Below are positions 199-11,040 of a stretch of 64,000 nt of DNA, piece by piece. The number at the start of each line of letters is the position of its first letter. Within the stretch, counting starts at the first letter, position 1. The position numbers were made by a program, and so were the translations under genes. Below the pieces are notes generated by a model that was not told the origin of the DNA, did not search any database, and saw only the letters and a program-made list of their open reading frames with translations. The DNA comes from a virus (lineage: Duplodnaviria; Heunggongvirae; Uroviricota; Caudoviricetes; Demerecviridae), in the IMG/VR virus record IMGVR_UViG_2974655058_000001, positions 7,652 to 71,651 of that record. One strand, given 5' to 3'.

Positions 199-411
199 AT
201 GATCCGCAACGTTTCTCTTGCACGTTCGAAAGGCTTTAAGCTGGTGGATGTTAACACGTTCGAGCGGGAAGATTGTAAAATCGAATATGTAGCACGTAAC
301 AAAAATGCCTTTCGTGTTACCGAGAAAAAATTTGACAAGCGCGGCAACGTGATCGCTGAAACGGTTAAACACTTTGCCACCTTTTACGCTGCGTTTCGGG
401 GAGTGTTATAA
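199..411 (+). CDS. hypothetical protein (70 aa)
   Basis: AAGGAG RBS 8 nt upstream of the ATG; ORF track. Confidence 0.55.
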   Translation: MIRNVSLARSKGFKLVDVNTFEREDCKIEYVARNKNAFRVTEKKFDKRGNVIAETVKHFATFYAAFRGVL

Positions 412-931: not shown

Positions 932-1126
932 ATGAGCAATAAAATTGTTGTAACCAAAATCAGTACAATGGTTGATGTTTTTTACGTGCCCGATACGCCG
1001 GAAAACCGACAAGCGGTCGAGCGTGGCGAGTATGATAAAGTGATTTATGATCACGATGGCTATTATCAACATTTGGTGGATTCCTACGGGGAAGAGGAAA
1101 AAATCACGCACCGACTACCAGACTAA
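932..1126 (+). CDS. hypothetical protein (64 aa)
   Basis: GGAG RBS; followed by a terminator hairpin. Confidence 0.55.
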   Translation: MSNKIVVTKISTMVDVFYVPDTPENRQAVERGEYDKVIYDHDGYYQHLVDSYGEEEKITHRLPD

Positions 1127-1133
1127 TAATCAC

Positions 1134-1167
1134 GGGGCGCAACTATCAGGGAGTGCCCCCAATTTTC
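1134..1167 (+). terminator. rho-independent terminator closing the plus-strand gene block
   Basis: GGGGC...GCCCC stem followed by AATTTTC. Confidence 0.6.
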
Positions 1168-1188
1168 AAATGAGAATGATTCTCATTT
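1168..1188. repeat. perfect 21-bp palindrome AAATGAGAAT-G-ATTCTCATTT
   Basis: read directly from the sequence. Confidence 0.8.
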
Positions 1189-1382
1189 GACCGCGCCCGC
1201 GATGGTTAGCCTGCTAATGGTTAGGGTGTTACGTGTCGCCTTGTGTGATCGTTAGCTCGCTAACTAATTTCTAAGCCTCCTCCAATTTTACCCTTGTTTT
1301 AGTATCCCCACCAAAATTAAACGCGTTAGAATGCGATTCAGGACGTTTTAGGCCTATATTAGAATTATTCACTGCATAGGAA

Positions 1383-1402
1383 TACTGTATATTTATACAG
1401 TG
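1383..1402. promoter_or_regulatory. LexA (SOS) box-like site TACTGTATATTTATACAGTG
   Basis: CTGT-N8-ACAG with an AT-rich centre, near-perfect match to the E. coli SOS-box consensus. Confidence 0.55.
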
Positions 1403-1414
1403 GAATAACCTGGG

Positions 1415-1432
1415 GATAAGTCTGTGGATAAC
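1415..1432. promoter_or_regulatory. 18-bp direct repeat copy 1 containing a consensus DnaA box TGTGGATAA
   Basis: GATAAGTCTGTGGATAAC; the reverse complement contains TTATCCACA. Confidence 0.55.
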
Positions 1433-1475
1433 GCTTCAAAATGGCTAGGATTTTGTCAAGTCAAATCGTGCTGTT

Positions 1476-1493
1476 GATAAGTCTGTGGATAAC
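1476..1493. promoter_or_regulatory. 18-bp direct repeat copy 2 with a DnaA box TGTGGATAA, plus a 1-mismatch box TGTTGATAA upstream
   Basis: identical 18-mer 61 bp downstream of copy 1. Confidence 0.55.
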
Positions 1494-1499
1494 TTAAAT

Positions 1500-1712
1500 A
1501 ACAGTGTTTCTCACTTCCATTTTTAAATGCGAATCATTATCATTTGCATTTCACTGTCTAACTGATAATCATTCCACTTTTTAAATGAGAATCATTTCAC
1601 TTCTTGAATAGTTCTCATTCCCTTTCTTAAATGCAAATCATTCCGCTTTTTAAATGAGAATAATTATCATTCGCATTCCGCTTTTTAAATGATAATGCTT
1701 CTCATTCAAAGT
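1500..1712. repeat. about five degenerate tandem copies of the AT-rich motif TTTTTAAATGAGAATCATT (Fur-box-like GAGAAT..ATTATC cores)
   Basis: visible periodic repeats of 35-45 bp. Confidence 0.6.
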
Positions 1713-1713
1713 C

Positions 1714-1740
1714 GCAGGGCAATTGCCCTGCGCTTTTGTG
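1714..1740 (+). terminator. hairpin GCAGGGC-AATT-GCCCTGC followed by GCTTTTGTG
   Basis: GC stem followed by a T-run. Confidence 0.5.
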
Positions 1741-1959
1741 CAAATCCGACATTGCTCCACGGGTGTTACGTGCGGGCATGTATGTGCGAATCCGACAATT
1801 TTTGGTAGTGTGCAAATCCGACCCGAAAAATTTTTATAGTGTGCAAATCCGACAATGAATTTTCCCAAAAACTCCAGCAATCACGAACTGCGTTCGAATC
1901 CTGTGGAATTAGCTAGAATATGTGCAAATCCGACATGTGTTGAGATGTGCGAATCCGAC
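1738..1959. repeat. iteron cluster: six copies of GTGC(A/G)AATCCGAC
   Basis: copies at 1738, 1784, 1810, 1841, 1922 and 1947. Confidence 0.8.
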
Positions 1960-2289
1960 AAGATTTTTATGACTTCGATGAGAGGGTGTGTGATTGTATA
2001 GGTTTGAGGAAAAGATGAGAGAGCGAGAGAAATTTTGGTACTAGAAGGGTGTGGGCGCAGGATTGGTGCGGAGCACCTGATTTGCGGGGATTTTGGGGAA
2101 GAGTTGAGATAATTTGGGGAAATTTGAGATAGGTGCAGAAAAAGTAAAATTTTATTAGCAAAACGGGGCAAAATAGCTTGACAAGTGAAAATTCTTGTGG
2201 CTCTAAAAACTCAGGCAATCATGGGCCTTCGGCCCGAAATAATGCTGCTATTTTCAGGAGAGTAAGAGTTCCTAAAAACTTAGGCGTTT

Positions 2290-2337
2290 GTGCAAATCCG
2301 ACCAGTTTTTAAACTCCTGTCAGTGTGCAAATCCGAC
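2290..2337. repeat. two further GTGCAAATCCGAC iterons
   Basis: copies at 2290 and 2325. Confidence 0.8.
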
Positions 2338-2339
2338 AG

Positions 2340-2800
2340 TAATTTCTGGAAATGTGTTTTCAAAAAATGTCTCCTAGAAATAACCGCCCTCCCTATAACC
2401 GCCCTGTATTAACCGCCTATTGCTAGAGTTTCTAGGAATATGAAAACCGCCTGAGTTGACTAGAGAAACAGATTTAAAGTTTAATGTAAACTCTAGAGTT
2501 AGTGCTCAACTATTCCTAGAAACTTAGGAGTCTAGAAGAAAGTGTTGTGCCATCCTAGCAGATGAGCGGCAACAGGTGTATCATCTTGAACACAGATATT
2601 GCCATTAAAAATATTTAAATAATATAAAGAAAAAGAGACCCCCAATTTCATGAGAGTCTCTCCTGGGGGGCGCGTGATTAATTACGTGAGTACTCATGCC
2701 GTCATACCGCTGTTGCTAGGCCGCAAGCTATACGAGACATTCGTGTAATAATCATCGCCCCTAGAGTTAATCAACTAGAGTAGTTGTTAATCTATGAGAT
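2340..2800. repeat. region with four (T)AACCGCC repeats and more than ten CTAGA/CTAGAG motifs
   Basis: AACCGCC at about 2383, 2398, 2412 and 2446; CTAG-containing hexamers recur. Confidence 0.5.
2633..2680. terminator. bidirectional hairpin CCCCCA...TGGGGGG
   Basis: inverted repeat with flanking A/T runs. Confidence 0.4.
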
Positions 2801-2848
2801 TATTATAACATGTTTGGGTATGAGAATGCAAGAACTTTTTGTTAACTT

Positions 2849-3562
2849 TTATTCCTCCTTCTTGGATTTGAGTTTGATACCTAAGGATGCGAAGTAGATA
2901 TAAGTTGCTAAATAGGAAGCAGTGGATCCTGTATCATCGTAATCCATAGTTCCGCGAGCTGCTCTAGTATACTCAGGAGCGTAGTTTAATATCGTGTAAC
3001 TTGGCATTCCTAGCGACTTACATAGTTCTTTAAATGTATCCTCATATTTATGGCACATGAAATGCACAGCATTTTCTAGGGGCGTTAACTCTAGATCTTT
3101 ATGTAGAGCTACAGTCAAACTCGCTAACATCGTGCCAATCCCACGATAAACTTCATCTTTAACTAGAGTTGGTTTCTCTTTTTCTAGTGGAGGAAGGTGG
3201 GCATATTTGCCGTGTTTGAAAGGAATAAGATCTTCACTAGCTAATGCTTCTTTAAATGATGCTTCCTTAAATCTTGGGAGATCTTCATCGATTAGGATAT
3301 GAATAGCATTAGAAGAGAAACCCTTTGCTTCAGGATCTAAAGCTTTCAACGCTTTATTCACCTCTACATATGAGCCTGACCAAACAACTTGTTTTGCATC
3401 ACGATCATATTTGATCTTACCTTTATCCCACCTAGCAGGATAATGATCTCCTAAAAACATTACTGCATATTTTTCTTCATCAGTTAGCTGGGAAAGACTC
3501 TTTTGTGTAGCACCACGTGCTAACTGGATGAGACGTTTTAATTTTTCAGCTTCTTTAATCAT
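2849..3562 (-). CDS. hypothetical protein (237 aa)
   Basis: ORF track; the first minus-strand early gene. Confidence 0.6.
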   Translation of the reverse strand: MIKEAEKLKRLIQLARGATQKSLSQLTDEEKYAVMFLGDHYPARWDKGKIKYDRDAKQVVWSGSYVEVNKALKALDPEAKGFSSNAIHILIDEDLPRFKEASFKEALASEDLIPFKHGKYAHLPPLEKEKPTLVKDEVYRGIGTMLASLTVALHKDLELTPLENAVHFMCHKYEDTFKELCKSLGMPSYTILNYAPEYTRAARGTMDYDDTGSTASYLATYIYFASLGIKLKSKKEE

Positions 3563-3964: not shown

Positions 3965-4519
3965 CTAGACTTCCACTCTTACAGGATTGTTCATAGGAAT
4001 AGTATAAACAGACTTATTAAAAACTCCGGAGTCCACAGGCGCTACGCTTTTCATGTCAGATTCAAAAGCTTCTTGGGTGTGTTTCAACTGTACAGAAGGC
4101 CCATAATCTTCACCAACTCGATATGAGGAATTATTTTCTATAACGCCACCGCATGGAACATTGTGCAAATCCGACGTTATTTTAGGACTGTTCCACATTG
4201 TAATTGGCCCTGACTGCCACGGATCTCGAATAGTCACAGGGGTACTAGGACGGTTAACCTCAGTCTTCACAAGTTTATAACCAGCATCGATTAGTGTATT
4301 AATTATATTATCAGCTGGGATGCGAGCTTTGCCAAAGATCTTACGAGCGTTGTTGAGCCTACCTTCAAAATCTTTACATGCTTTAATATTAGTGTGTGCA
4401 AAGGTTAGCTTCATAGATTTGAACTGTACAGTGGCAGTTAAATCTTTAAAGCTATAATCCCACGTATTTAGTTCATGATCGGGTACTACTTGAATAGATT
4501 GTTGTGCATATAAAGTCAT
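3965..4519 (-). CDS. hypothetical protein (184 aa)
   Basis: ORF track. Confidence 0.55.
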   Translation of the reverse strand: MTLYAQQSIQVVPDHELNTWDYSFKDLTATVQFKSMKLTFAHTNIKACKDFEGRLNNARKIFGKARIPADNIINTLIDAGYKLVKTEVNRPSTPVTIRDPWQSGPITMWNSPKITSDLHNVPCGGVIENNSSYRVGEDYGPSVQLKHTQEAFESDMKSVAPVDSGVFNKSVYTIPMNNPVRVEV

Positions 4520-5880: not shown

Positions 5881-5912
5881 AAAGGCCAGAACAATTAAGT
5901 CCTGGCCTCCTA
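5881..5912 (-). terminator. rho-independent terminator (minus strand)
   Basis: GGCCAGG...CTGGCC stem followed by TTTTATGTTTTC on the minus strand. Confidence 0.55.
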
Positions 5913-5915
5913 AAA

Positions 5916-6287
5916 TTAATGAAGTTGTTTACCACTTCTTAACATAGTGGCCGTTTCCATAAGACCTAGCGTAGTATCACGCTTATTGATCTGTTTACCA
6001 AGTTCATCAGTACGTTTACTGATGTAAGCATTAATAGCCATATTCATAGCTGTAGCGAGATCTTCTTTGGTTATCTCTTCATCGTCTAAAGCTAATTTAG
6101 CCAAAGAATCAAATGTGCTAGAGAGTCCTATAAGATCTGAGGTTTCTCCAGCCAAAATAGGATTAATATTATCTACTGTTACTTCTAGCATGGAGTTAAC
6201 AATATCTTCACCGTCTATTAGACCAAATTCAATATTACTCTCCCACTCCTTCATCTGTTCCAGCAATGGATTTTTCTTTTCTGTCAT
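5916..6287 (-). CDS. hypothetical protein (longer ORF extends to 6353)
   Basis: ORF track; internal start chosen to reduce overlap. Confidence 0.4.
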   Translation of the reverse strand: MTEKKNPLLEQMKEWESNIEFGLIDGEDIVNSMLEVTVDNINPILAGETSDLIGLSSTFDSLAKLALDDEEITKEDLATAMNMAINAYISKRTDELGKQINKRDTTLGLMETATMLRSGKQLH

Positions 6288-7554: not shown

Positions 7555-7832
7555 TTTTTAATCTCCGTGATTATCTGTGTACGCATTACTTTAGCGGGTA
7601 ATTTATTATTACCAATTATTGCCTCGATATTATTTAATTTTTCTTTAAGAATATCTGAGCGTCTTTGTGCTAATTCAATATCTTGCTCTTGCTCTAGCAA
7701 GCGGTGGTGTAGCCCATCATTAGTAATGAGCATACTTTCCATGTTTTTCCGTGCATTCACAATCCCAATAACTCCACCAATCGCTACTAGCGTAGTAAGA
7801 ATTAGTAACCCAATAAGAATTTCTATAATCAT
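7551..7832 (-). CDS. membrane protein (TM plus coiled coil)
   Basis: N-terminal TM helix. Confidence 0.5.
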   Translation of the reverse strand: MIIEILIGLLILTTLVAIGGVIGIVNARKNMESMLITNDGLHHRLLEQEQDIELAQRRSDILKEKLNNIEAIIGNNKLPAKVMRTQIITEIKK

Positions 7833-8715: not shown

Positions 8716-9147
8716 TTACCAATCGTTAACAACACCAGAGAACTCAGAAGCAAAAACTTTCTCAAATTTTTCTGCAATTTCAGGATGATCTTTACAGATT
8801 AACTCAATGCATGCTTCTGGAGTCATTCCTTCGTCTTCAGGATCACCGTAATATTTGTCCCAAAGATCATCAGGGATGATGTGCTCTGCCAAATCTTGGA
8901 AAGAGATTAACTGATAACGTTCTGCTTCCTCGGCGATAAGGATTTCACAAAGATCTTTATCTATATCACTACGGTAATCAGCAATTAGTAGGGCATTGCA
9001 AGCATGACACTCCCAAACCATCAAGCGTTCAGAAATAGGATTAGACTTATCCTGAACGTAGGACTGAAACAGGGTTCGGAAAGTAGCTTTAACTTGTTCA
9101 AACTTATCTGCTGCTGCGAAAACTAGGGCTTTATCAACTTTGTTCAT
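8716..9147 (-). CDS. hypothetical protein (143 aa)
   Basis: ORF track plus an upstream promoter module. Confidence 0.55.
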   Translation of the reverse strand: MNKVDKALVFAAADKFEQVKATFRTLFQSYVQDKSNPISERLMVWECHACNALLIADYRSDIDKDLCEILIAEEAERYQLISFQDLAEHIIPDDLWDKYYGDPEDEGMTPEACIELICKDHPEIAEKFEKVFASEFSGVVNDW

Positions 9148-9306
9148 TTTTATTCCTTCTCATCAATTTATAAAGTAATTATACAGAAACTTAGGCATTT
9201 TAGCAAATAAAACTTTTAATTAAAATGCCTAGTCCTGTACCAATAGCAATACAAATGATTATAAGTATTGCTACTGCTTGTATGATTCGTTTAATAATAG
9301 CCATGA

Positions 9307-9897
9307 TTAGACATTTATATCACCACGCAATACGGCAGCTACATCTTCCCCTATCTGTAATACTTCACCAGTAGTGCAGTTGACTACTCTATCATAGCTA
9401 GTAAACTTACCTGATACAATATCTTCTAGAGGGATAGGAGTTTTGCTCATTTCAAATGAGACATTGATGTAACGAGGGTCACGTAGAGAAGTAGCATGTG
9501 CGTGCCCGTGAATATTTAACTTGCCTCGAAGTTCGTTGGGGTGCAAAGGACAGTGAGATAACCAAAACTTTTTACCACCACCAGTCTGTTTACCTAGAGC
9601 CTGAATATCATCGTAAACTTCTACTAAATCTTTAATACAGAGTCCTTGACGTTCCGCATCGTGGTTGCCCATAATAAGTTGATTAGGAACATTGTGGATA
9701 ACCGACTTTAGCTTGGCCAAGCCTTCACGACCTACTGCAATGTCTCCTAACAAGATGAGTTTAGTACGTTTGCCAATGTGCTTGGAAAGGGTATCCAGAA
9801 TATACTCATCATGCTCTTTCATGTTCTTAAACCACGGGCGGAAACGTAGTGCTCCGGGATGGTCTAAGTGCAAATCTGACCAAAATTTAACTTTCAT
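9307..9897 (-). CDS. calcineurin-like metallophosphoesterase
   Basis: DLHLDH...GDIAVG...GNHD motifs. Confidence 0.7.
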   Translation of the reverse strand: MKVKFWSDLHLDHPGALRFRPWFKNMKEHDEYILDTLSKHIGKRTKLILLGDIAVGREGLAKLKSVIHNVPNQLIMGNHDAERQGLCIKDLVEVYDDIQALGKQTGGGKKFWLSHCPLHPNELRGKLNIHGHAHATSLRDPRYINVSFEMSKTPIPLEDIVSGKFTSYDRVVNCTTGEVLQIGEDVAAVLRGDINV

Positions 9898-10177
9898 TAT
9901 TCTTTCCTTTATTCAGAATAATATTATCAACCCAAGTGGTTAATACTCTAGCTTTAAAATCTTCGGGAGTTTCTGTTTTCTTAAAGGCCTCCTCATTAAG
10001 GAGGAAAATACTAAGTCTTGTTTCTACCTCTATCTCAGTAGGGGAGTCAAAACAAAAATTGGCTGATACTCCAGAGTACCATACTCCAGTATCCCCCTTA
10101 CTGAAGGCATTAACTAGTGCCCTCCAACGAAGGGCATCAAGATGTGTTGAACTTGATTGTTCTTGTTTACTATCCAT
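9887..10177 (-). CDS. hypothetical protein
   Basis: ORF track. Confidence 0.5.
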   Translation of the reverse strand: MDSKQEQSSSTHLDALRWRALVNAFSKGDTGVWYSGVSANFCFDSPTEIEVETRLSIFLLNEEAFKKTETPEDFKARVLTTWVDNIILNKGKNNES

Positions 10178-11040
10178 TAAAGAATCCTCTGTATGCCACA
10201 GCTATCTTCTCGAAGCGTGGTAAATGTTGTGATTTTCCCAGTTTCATCATTAACTTGCGCAACCGTCAACTGCCCGTTGAAGACACCGCCAGTATCTAGG
10301 TAAACACGATTCTGGTATAAAATAGGGTAAGGTACTCCGGTATGTCCGTGAAACACAAAGTCTACCCCACTAACTGGAGGTACTTCTACCATGTATTTTT
10401 CTTTAAATCCTGCATAACGCTGGAAATACGAGTGTTCCTCACCATTTTTGGACAAATGGAAGCCTATTTCTTGGATTACATCTCGATCCCATAAGTATGG
10501 TTCAACATGGTATCCAGGATGGTCATGTGGGTCTTCCTTAGCTGCTTCTACTTGTGCAATAAGGTTATCCCATACTGGGATTTCTACTTCGTTACCACAT
10601 TCTTTGTACGTAAAAGGTACACCACCATGAACAACACCATATTTCTTGCCACGATGCAGCACAGTCAGAAATACTGGAAGTTTTTCAGCCATGTCTTCGG
10701 CAATATTTTTAATGGTATCTGCATCTAGTTCATTCATAGCCCACATACCACCGTTATACATCCAGTTAGCCCAATCTCCCACAATCATAAACTGGTCATG
10801 ATTTCCACGAACGCTACAGAAACGTGGATTATATAAGAATTTAGCTAGAACTTGTAGGTTCTGCGTGCCTCGGTCAATTAAGTCACCAACACATACTACG
10901 CAATCTTTCTTGCCGTTATATCCAGCTAATTGTAGGGCATCTTCTAGCAAATCATTGCATCCATGAATATCGCCAACAAAGAATAAGTTAACATCATCAG
11001 GTACTACTAGTGTTTTATGCACATTAAATTCTTTTTTCAT
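10177..11040 (-). CDS. Ser/Thr protein phosphatase (PPP family, lambda-PPase-like)
   Basis: GDIHGC, GDLIDRG and GNHD motifs. Confidence 0.8.
   Translation of the reverse strand: MKKEFNVHKTLVVPDDVNLFFVGDIHGCNDLLEDALQLAGYNGKKDCVVCVGDLIDRGTQNLQVLAKFLYNPRFCSVRGNHDQFMIVGDWANWMYNGGMWAMNELDADTIKNIAEDMAEKLPVFLTVLHRGKKYGVVHGGVPFTYKECGNEVEIPVWDNLIAQVEAAKEDPHDHPGYHVEPYLWDRDVIQEIGFHLSKNGEEHSYFQRYAGFKEKYMVEVPPVSGVDFVFHGHTGVPYPILYQNRVYLDTGGVFNGQLTVAQVNDETGKITTFTTLREDSCGIQRIL

Follow-up and report, generated by a model that had tools for sequence, protein, structure and literature searches.

The subject of this work is a gene-free region of 1.7 kb (positions 1130-2848) within a 64,000-nt stretch of phage DNA, hereafter called the window (IMG/VR record IMGVR_UViG_2974655058_000001, positions 7,652 to 71,651). 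The region is a 100 % match to positions 8781-10499 of Salmonella phage VSe12 (MN022787.1, Tequintavirus), window positions being record positions minus 7651. It is almost certainly the VSe12 orthologue of Repeat Region 3 of phage T5, a composite locus that acts in cis, encodes no protein and separates the rightward pre-early genes from the early genes, which are read leftward. Its left part (approximately 1380-1735) contains a LexA box, two pairs of DnaA boxes, seven Fur-like repeats and a terminator hairpin that bears a nick motif, and is a candidate injection-stop signal (iss). Our best explanation of the region as a whole, to which we assign a probability of roughly 45 %, is that this Repeat Region 3 orthologue halts DNA transfer by means of host proteins.

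Correspondence with Repeat Region 3 of T5

Homologs of the region were found in 448 phage records, nearly all of them T5-like, and in 123 of these the match covers at least 80 % of its length. Alignment with T5 (AY587007), Kenya-K38 (K38) and HdH2 gave a mean column identity of 82 %. The core of the region (approximately 1290-2590) is nearly colinear in this alignment, and its T5 counterpart spans 8880-10870. Annotated features of T5 Repeat Region 3 (AY587007, 9194-10409) map one-to-one to the window in the same order and with the same spacing, palC and DRD9 being the exceptions (Table 1).

A previous interpretation made from the letters alone (the sequence-only reading) had noted resemblance to the T5 injection-stop locus and proposed an alignment to the T5 left terminal repeat and the injection-stop region as a check. 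The resemblance holds for both position and content, since T5 features map in order, and is in accord with the analysis of Davison (10.1101/866236). Homology extends along the core and the end of the T5 left terminal repeat falls on position 2203, so the locus is neither dissimilar to that end nor internal and unrelated to the boundary of first-step transfer.

In the preprint of Davison (10.1101/866236), Repeat Region 3 was described as the candidate iss in 25 T5-like phages, rich in repeats, palindromes and DnaA boxes. The same work counts as true T5-like phages those with dmp, A1 and A2 on the left side of the terminal repeat. Homologs of all three are present further left in the VSe12 record; the A1 protein matches PHROG 1745 ("DNA transfer protein") and A2 matches PHROG 1725 ("DNA binding protein"). 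This kind of locus is thus already known, and we describe the iss region in one more phage; the new part is the family-wide comparison of its LexA and Fur-like sites.

Sites resembling LexA, DnaA and Fur targets

T5 palindrome D and its VSe12 counterpart are a near-perfect SOS box that is kept family-wide, and binding of LexA to it is predicted. No other sequence in 64 kb matches the LexA consensus with three or fewer mismatches (0.00 expected). For calibration, the recA operator of E. coli was scored likewise and reaches 16/20. A 19/20 variant (TACTGTATAAATATACAGTA) occurs in T5, K38, HdH2, the Epseptimaviruses Seafire and EPS7, Klebsiella phage Spivey (Sugarlandvirus) and Erwinia phage KEY, while the boxes of Enterobacter phage KKP_3711 and Vibrio phage VspSw_1 (Pogseptimavirus) reach 18/20 and 17/20, respectively. 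A score of at least 17/20 is found in seven phages of at least five genera, the Vibrio phage included. Cross-genus alignment reveals no change in either arm (CTGT, ACAG) or in most of the spacer; the 50 nt upstream are variable. The centre of the spacer switches between AA and TT among phages with the consensus kept.

The same box was sought in IMG/VR, in distinct loci with enough upstream sequence and within 450 nt of the first DRD iteron (a repeat of the right half, see below). It was detected with at least 18/20 in 22 of 23 loci, 316-436 bp upstream of the iteron. The 23rd locus has a longer repeat array and its LexA box probably lies just beyond the searched 450 nt. The only promoter-like sequence that overlaps the VSe12 box is a 9/12 match on the minus strand (1391-1364), which is at chance level.

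Two exact TTATCCACA DnaA boxes are found on the minus strand at 1423-1431 and 1484-1492, within a 23-nt direct repeat (1410-1432 and 1471-1493, 91 % identical). Each is accompanied by a variant box 3 bp upstream (TGGGGATAA and TGTTGATAA) and the resulting pairs are 61 bp apart. The pairs belong to a 131-bp module whose inverted partner, IRC-spacer-IRD, precedes it by about 3 kb at VSe12 record 5908-6038, beyond the left edge of the window, as in T5 Repeat Region 2. The modules agree mostly at the LexA core, at the DnaA pairs and in two more blocks. The inverted module carries a second LexA box (16-17/20) with an identical CTGT-N8-ACAG core.

The DnaA boxes are followed by an array of AT-rich repeats with a period of 23 nt, sometimes 35 nt, and cores at 1524-1700; one more such core stands isolated in the palindrome at 1166-1190, which is present in K38 and HdH2 and absent at the same spot in T5. 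Fur-like sites were scored against the 7-1-7 consensus TGATAATNATTATCA (14 positions). All four sites with at least 12/14 in the 64-kb window fall in the region, namely 1171-1185, 1528-1542 (12/14), 1655-1669 (13/14) and 1690-1704 (12/14), compared to 0.05 in shuffles of the region. Scores for the 19-bp Fur consensus GATAATGATAATCATTATC are 13-15/19 at several registers. The number of units varies among close relatives: VSe12 has one 23-nt unit (1610-1632) more than T5, K38 and HdH2.

To calibrate this measure, 18 kb of the E. coli ent/fep locus were scanned. Scores of at least 11/14 were obtained only in four intergenic gaps (fepA-fes 11, entF-fepE 11, fepD-entS 11 and fepB-entC 13), three of which are divergent promoter regions under the control of Fur. 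The fhuA promoter scores 11/14 and the iucA operator 12/14. Moreover, the 15-nt core of T5 palG (AATGAGAATCATTAT) recurs without a mismatch on IncF plasmids, in what we take to be the aerobactin operator 21 bp upstream of iucA, and 15 nt at window 1691-1705 (AATGAGAAGCATTAT) are identical to part of the fepB-entC intergenic region. The repeat core favours GAGAAT over the GATAAT of the Fur consensus; GAGAAT also occurs in the iucA operator. DRC/DRE repeats score like real Fur operators, and binding of Fur to them is predicted.

BLAST search with the array against 5,426 E. coli genomes returned just six marginal matches (E = 8) to an intergenic spot of a prophage. Such a database is too large for short sites, and chosen Fur-regulated loci were therefore scanned directly, as described above. 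The array does not sit on the promoter of an iron gene: it has no downstream gene and lies between two plus-strand terminators. It may thus work like a Fur site without being a classical operator. We also considered that Fur boxes might be tied to the use of iron-regulated receptors. This was rejected, as the BtuB-using phages DT571/2 and EPS7 keep the boxes.

A separate 14/14 Fur 7-1-7 palindrome (TGATAATCATTATCA) is found at T5 233-247, about 200 bp from the left genome end, in the 3' part of dmp. The site scores 13/14 in VSe12 (record 113-127) and is found in two further records at positions 206 and 202. It is retained even where A2 is only 65 % identical; coding constraint may suffice to explain this.

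The sequence-only reading had listed the near-consensus LexA box, which is confirmed at 18/20 and unique in 64 kb. Its observation of LexA-box and Fur-like elements likewise stands at the level of sequence, now with conservation across the family and calibration against real operators. Some of its measures had to be corrected. The 21-bp perfect palindrome exists and is 25 bp long (1166-1190), the two consensus DnaA boxes lie in a direct repeat of 23 nt instead of 18 bp, and the AT-rich Fur-like tandem repeats, estimated at about five, amount to seven units plus the isolated palindrome.

Conservation of the site order

The order of LexA box, DnaA boxes, Fur-like repeats, hairpin and CTGCGC is common to Tequintavirus, Epseptimavirus, the Enterobacter phage, Sugarlandvirus and Pogseptimavirus. 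Between these conserved blocks the sequence diverges across genera. Erwinia phage KEY retains only the LexA box and the DnaA boxes. Fur boxes with at least 12/14 are kept in Epseptimaviruses and three are present in the Vibrio phage. A search for A2 proteins in IMG/VR, made to widen the family, retrieved almost only the same cultured T5-like genomes. The whole region is spanned only by close relatives, so that a conservation profile of many genomes over its full length gave no information.

We further detected the Fur-like motif by distant BLAST search in unrelated phages of about 147 kb. Phages phi92 (NC_023693, at 137.0 kb of the genome) and alia (MN850632, at 77.2 kb), both Stephanstirmvirinae, contain four boxes of 12-13/14 within 100 nt. 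These boxes (TGATAATCATTCTCA, TGAGAATCATTATCA and similar) occupy a convergent intergenic gap beside three TTTTGAAAATGAAAAGTTCAA-type repeats. Occurrence of the same cluster in unrelated phages favours a host protein, not a T5-specific one, as the reader of the motif. Short BLAST matches to the motif were also obtained in other large myovirus records (VEcB, DE16, P3322, WPEC2, ESCO25, ETEC-TG, Enterobacter F1M1E and Klebsiella phi1_175008).

Host nucleoprotein complex as a candidate stop

The question of how T5 injection stops and restarts has reportedly been open since the work of Lanni in the 1960s. First-step transfer stops without synthesis of phage proteins, A1 and A2 are required to resume it, and ejection in vitro through FhuA alone runs to completion (Davison, 10.1101/866236). 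Taken together, the stop in the absence of phage protein synthesis and the complete ejection in vitro imply that pre-existing host components are needed. According to the same preprint, DnaA is largely membrane-bound and was proposed to hold the DnaA boxes; LexA, SOS, Fur and iron are not mentioned there. Literature on T5 and T5-like phages in connection with LexA, SOS or Fur yielded nothing relevant, with Davison 2015, Heusterspreute 1987 and Wang 2005, any of which may contain such a mention, outside the coverage. The BF23 genome paper of 2023 (PMC10644984) states that experimental studies of the sites are lacking, and a 2026 PNAS paper (PMC13250531) still calls the stop mechanism poorly understood and lists secondary structure as an option.

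Just left of the shear point, nothing conserved can be recognised except high-quality sites for three abundant host DNA-binding proteins. For this reason we favour, tentatively and at somewhat less than even odds, a host nucleoprotein complex of DnaA, LexA and Fur as the stop or anchor. The array would then serve as a landing pad for LexA, Fur and, in line with Davison's proposal, DnaA associated with the membrane. Binding of these host proteins would take place while the stretch is entering the cytoplasm, and the inverted LexA-DnaA module, 3 kb upstream, might be bridged to it. A bulky complex would form where the DNA leaves the membrane, halting transfer as well as read-through transcription, and would later be released by A1 and A2, produced from the transferred DNA. 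The more general proposition, that a virulent phage uses host global regulators as a mechanical checkpoint and that LexA, DnaA and Fur sites would be the stop signal of T5-like phages, is rather unlikely in our estimation.

We considered a "LexA-cleavage timer" as well, in which degradation of host DNA driven by A1 would activate RecA, LexA would be cleaved and transfer would restart. The strain DH5alpha is recA1 and T5-like phages are isolated and propagated on it; SOS cleavage of LexA is thus not required for restart, and the timer was rejected as a requirement.

Nick motif, iterons and the end of the terminal repeat

Positions of all features are summarized in Table 1.

Table 1. Features of the region and their T5 counterparts. 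Positions refer to the window; T5 counterparts follow from the alignment map, the shear point from homology.
Feature	Position	Strand	T5 counterpart	Remark
GC-rich hairpin, then CAATTTTC	1134-1159	+		fold -15.6 kcal/mol, z = -2.8; directly after last pre-early open reading frame
25-bp perfect palindrome TCAAATGAGAATGATTCTCATTTGA (TCAAATGAGAAT-G-ATTCTCATTTGA)	1166-1190			isolated Fur-like repeat core, 12/14 to TGATAATNATTATCA
Near-consensus LexA (SOS) box TACTGTATATTTATACAGTG	1383-1402		palindrome D (9330-9349)	18/20 to consensus TACTGTATATATATACAGTA
IRD'-spacer-IRC' module, 131 bp	1385-1515 (record 9036-9166)		IRD'-spacer-IRC'	contains paired DnaA boxes
DnaA pair 1: variant TTATCCCCA and consensus TTATCCACA, 3 bp apart	1411-1431	-	DRB1/2 (both DnaA-box repeats)	
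DnaA pair 2: variant TTATCAACA and consensus TTATCCACA, 3 bp apart	1472-1492	-	DRB1/2 (both DnaA-box repeats)	
Seven AT-rich 23-nt Fur-like repeats, core TAAATGAGAATCATT	1521-1712		DRC1-4 and palE-palI (DRC/DRE)	
Calculated shear point	1694		9618	
Perfect 20-bp GC-rich palindrome, then TTTT	1713-1732	+	palJ	hairpin, -19.9 kcal/mol, z = -4.7
Nick motif CCCTGCGC	1726-1733	+	"major single-stranded nick 1, 7.9 %"	identical to T5 motif
Six DRD iterons GTGC(A/G)AATCCGAC	1738-1959	+	DRD1-6	one orientation
C-depleted, G/A/T-rich tract	1960-2180	+	DRA2-3 at 2090-2128	66 % purine, 7 % C
Final 60 nt of direct terminal repeat (...TTGACAAGTGAAAATTCTTGTGGCTC^TAAAAAC)	2144-2203	+	left terminal repeat end 10139 at 2203	
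DRD iterons 7 and 8	2290-2337	+	DRD7-8	just beyond terminal repeat
AACCGCC x4 (2382-2451) and local CTAGA/TCTAG cluster	2374-2536			
Hairpin and T-run, intrinsic terminator of leftward early operon	2664-2631	-		-18.8 kcal/mol; last gene stops at 2849

The nick motif is about 40 nt or less from the mapped shear point, and CTGCGC after the hairpin is kept in all aligned genera except that of Erwinia phage KEY. The "repeat ends" assigned by PhageTerm to the Epseptimaviruses Seafire (2410) and Seabear (1933) fall on CCCTGCG^C / CCCTGCGC^, which corresponds to window 1732-1733, approximately 470 nt before the T5-type repeat end. They probably represent a pile-up of read starts at the nick that was mis-called as a repeat end, and the nick would thus be conserved. 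PhageTerm boundaries on CCCTGCGC should therefore be read as probable 7.9 % nicks and not as repeat ends.

The actual boundary can be placed by comparison of deposited genomes. Window 2144-2203 is the terminal sequence of seven T5-like records that include both repeats, and the end of the T5 left terminal repeat maps there too; the repeat boundary, that is the physical right genome end, is therefore at 2203/2204. The terminal repeat takes up 1074 nt of the region and leaves 645 nt beyond its end. Almost no variation is seen in the 60 nt that precede the repeat end, and 2060-2300 is among the best-conserved sequence. As an annotation aid, this terminal 60-mer places the repeat end of T5-like genomes at window 2203. 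The end given by the annotators of K38 is 28 nt earlier. Repeat ends are placed inconsistently across T5-like records, as illustrated by chee24 (NC_047885), whose deposited right end is 259 nt after DRD1 (approximately window 1996), compared to about 466 nt in other two-repeat records. A perfectly conserved TTGACA occurs 20 nt before the repeat end (window 2178-2209), and if an 18-nt spacer is assumed, the corresponding -10 element (TCTAAA) would span the boundary. Such a promoter-like element would be severed at the genome end in the right-hand repeat copy.

DRD iterons are eight in number, six GTGCAAATCCGAC and two GTGCGAATCCGAC, all on the plus strand, where 0.05 would be expected. Additional copies are found inside minus-strand coding genes, one exact (4163-4175) and one with a single mismatch (9868-9880), both in the same plus orientation as the intergenic ones. 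The former, shared with K38 and HdH2, corresponds to "DRD copy 10", located at T5 12073 in ORF019. Comparison by eye with host sites for CRP, Fis and IHF and with matS and dif gave no convincing match. A phage protein is a likelier reader of the iterons than a host one, A2 if they serve restart or terminase if they serve end formation, though we propose this assignment with considerable doubt.

AACCGCC is present in four copies, the only ones in 64 kb. The word CTAGA is common (115 per strand in 64 kb) and shows local clustering; CTAG itself occurs 295 times in 64 kb, a high number for a phage of enterobacteria. This block is a candidate packaging or end-processing signal. The right half of the region is probably concerned with formation of the terminal repeat and with restart.

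Gene-free interval and its transcription

The last plus-strand open reading frame (ORF) ends at 1126 and the stop codon of the first minus-strand ORF is at 2849. The three biggest ORFs in between (96, 83 and 76 amino acids) carry frameshifts or stops in T5, K38 or HdH2, and the region can be called ORF-free because they are broken in these relatives. Small coding sequences annotated within the region were treated as spurious; such calls differ between records. On the left there are small plus-strand genes, one of which (window 199-411) belongs to the family of T5.015, an Ung-dependent nicking endonuclease. The right flank is a long block of minus-strand genes. The locus is thus flanked by two convergent transcription units. 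ORFs flanking it have no Pfam matches and belong to PHROGs of unknown function.

Judging from predicted folds, the hairpin at 1134-1159 is a probable first terminator of rightward pre-early transcripts, and the one at 1713-1732 is predicted to be a strong intrinsic terminator for rightward transcription. Matching terminators, that of the leftward early operon included, are marked by the annotators of HdH2. The promoter scan of the region found 4 weak promoter-like sites compared to 6.0 expected; as this is below the shuffle mean, the possibility that the region is a cluster of promoters was rejected. Permissive Rfam search of 1000-3000 returned just three far-sub-threshold matches to unrelated families and no known structured RNA.

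Most of what the sequence-only reading had said of the right half and of the setting agrees with these results. The 1.7-kb ORF-free interval between plus-strand small genes and the minus-strand early block, the eight iterons, the purine-rich stretch (1960-2180), the AACCGCC family (2382-2451) and the several hairpins (1134-1159, 1713-1732 and, on the minus strand, 2664-2631) were all found. The CTAGA family holds as a local cluster at 2374-2536, although the word is common phage-wide. Most of the listed motifs exceed chance by a wide margin, the number of DnaA boxes being the exception. The reading had not pointed out that the locus reaches across the end of the terminal repeat, contains the 7.9 % nick motif, is set between two convergent terminators and has an inverted second LexA-DnaA module some 3 kb upstream.

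Alternative explanations

Several points weigh against a stop made of host proteins. Occupancy of the locus by LexA, Fur and DnaA is predicted from resemblance of its sequence to known sites. With 8 copies in the window and 7.8 expected by chance, consensus DnaA boxes are not enriched, and their significance lies in arrangement and conservation, not in count. The Fur-like repeats are mutually paralogous, so their matches to the consensus are not independent events. Fur-like sites with at least 12/14 are absent in Erwinia phage KEY and Enterobacter phage KKP_3711 and only one is present in Klebsiella phage Spivey; given this patchy distribution, Fur is not indispensable across the family. Neither LexA nor Fur is a membrane protein. 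Fur requires bound iron to bind DNA, and iron-starved cells, which display most FhuA or FepA, would be without the block. To our knowledge, no report describes fur or lexA hosts as resistant to T5. Finally, it is physically hard to explain how proteins on the cytoplasmic side could halt DNA driven by capsid pressure.

One alternative is that DNA itself jams the tail or membrane channel: palindromes and inverted repeats, together with the strand break at CCCTGCGC, would form hairpins or cruciforms, and likeness to protein sites would be a side-effect of palindromy. Only three palindromes with arms of at least 10 nt exist in 64 kb and two of them are within the region, which in addition contains many overlapping inverted repeats and has the 131-nt inverted partner 3 kb away. 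The nick motif near the shear point is conserved and reviews still list secondary structure (PMC13250531). On the other hand, complete ejection through FhuA in vitro (10.1101/866236) does not fit a purely DNA-intrinsic block. The inverted modules are just 78 % complementary, with identity in protein-site-like blocks and not along a stem, and positions conserved across genera are those of the LexA, DnaA and Fur consensus. The AA/TT flip in the LexA spacer leaves the consensus intact, and Fur-like cores are mostly not self-complementary as repeats. We consider a structural jam improbable. The sites might instead be look-alikes read by phage-encoded proteins, A2 or unknown pre-early or virion proteins, with likeness to host operators being convergent or coincidental. 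A2 does belong to a "DNA binding protein" PHROG family, DRD iterons have no recognisable host-site counterpart, and the repeat core shows a preference for GAGAAT over the GATAAT of Fur. Arrest nevertheless precedes any phage protein (10.1101/866236), the LexA box is nearer to consensus than the recA operator, the 15-nt identities are to real Fur-controlled promoters, the iucA operator itself contains GAGAAT, and the Fur-like cluster recurs in an unrelated phage subfamily. Phage-encoded readers thus seem very improbable. In T7, host RNA polymerase pulls in the genome, and the region could act as a transcriptional insulator in which terminators and tightly bound host repressors merely keep polymerase on the rightward pre-early operon from doing so, with the actual stop located in the tail, portal or membrane channel. 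The cluster is placed exactly between hairpin 1134-1159 and terminator 1713-1732, downstream of the rightward pre-early genes, and promoters are not enriched (4 versus 6.0). Two terminators would suffice for such a role, however, and the inverted second LexA-DnaA module upstream of the same operon would be left unexplained; we hold the insulator to be no less improbable than the phage-encoded readers.

A further possibility concerns the right half and complements the host-protein stop. DRD iterons, the invariant 60 nt and the AACCGCC/CTAGA block may be elements of a packaging or end-formation signal at which terminase recognises and cleaves the DNA to create the terminal repeat, like pac sites with flanking repeats in other phages. 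This agrees with the repeat end being inside the locus, with the strong conservation of 2060-2300 and with six DRD copies left and two right of 2203 in one orientation. DRD copies are also found in coding genes (4163, 9868, T5 12073), though, and none is annotated near the left end of the T5 repeat, which makes the packaging signal possible but doubtful. DnaA boxes next to an AT-rich array and iterons also resemble plasmid origins, and the locus could be imagined as a theta-type replication origin or as a multicopy decoy that titrates Fur, LexA or DnaA. T5 origins were, however, mapped near the genome centre and replication genes are silent during first-step transfer (10.1101/866236); an initiator gene is not adjacent, as judged from the Pfam and PHROG results for the flanking ORFs. 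As to the decoy, the one to four copies of a site present early in infection are too few to titrate regulators that number thousands of molecules, and late in infection host DNA is degraded and host transcription is off. Both an origin and a decoy are very remote prospects.

The host-protein stop has the practical advantage of genetic accessibility. The only earlier candidate, DnaA, is essential and hard to remove, whereas LexA and Fur are easily removed or locked genetically, by a fur deletion, lexA(Def) sulA or lexA3(Ind-), so the host-factor model is directly testable with standard strains. If it is true, the pause could depend on the state of the host (iron-loaded Fur, intact LexA, level of DnaA-ATP), and the Fur array of phi92-like phages would be a hint that virulent phages exploit host Fur more widely than has been recognised.

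Comparison with known systems

Like datA-type clusters outside oriC, the locus has four close DnaA boxes (two pairs) with no unwinding element recognised nearby; the phage boxes differ in being paired with a 3-bp gap, duplicated in inverted orientation and carried by injected phage DNA. E. coli SOS boxes share with the phage box the CTGT-N8-ACAG palindrome and the AT-rich spacer, the phage version being nearer to consensus (18-19/20 versus 16/20 for recA). In contrast to them, the phage box is not on a recognisable promoter, belongs to a virulent phage and has an inverted second copy 3 kb away. With Fur operators (iucA P1, fepB-entC, fepA-fes, fhuA) the phage array shares overlapping 7-1-7/hexamer arrays, at 12-13/14, and the 15-nt identities to the iucA and fepB-entC control regions. 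The phage array differs from these operators by its seven units at a regular 23 nt and by having neither a downstream iron gene nor a clear promoter.

Among phages, the phi92-like cluster is of the same TGA(G/T)AATCATT(C/A)TCA type, is likewise placed in a convergent gap and adjoins tandem repeats. In contrast to T5-like phages, this unrelated lineage has no LexA or DnaA boxes and no DRD iterons there, and two-step injection is not known for phi92-like phages.

The closest system is Repeat Region 3 (iss) of T5 itself (Heusterspreute 1987; Wang 2005; Davison 2015, 2020), located at the same site between pre-early plus-strand genes and the first early genes. Compared to T5, VSe12 carries one extra 23-nt DRC unit and the additional 25-bp Fur-like palindrome at 1166-1190, and lacks T5 DRD9 and palC. 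DnaA pair 1 is consensus in VSe12 and variant in T5. The leftmost 150 nt and the segment right of approximately 2600 are not alignable. Borders between first-step and second-step transfer DNA of BF23 and other Tequintavirus and Epseptimavirus phages (PMC10644984) are long noncoding regions with direct and inverted repeats and DnaA boxes as well; we see no substantive difference from them and regard all of these as the same locus in sister phages.

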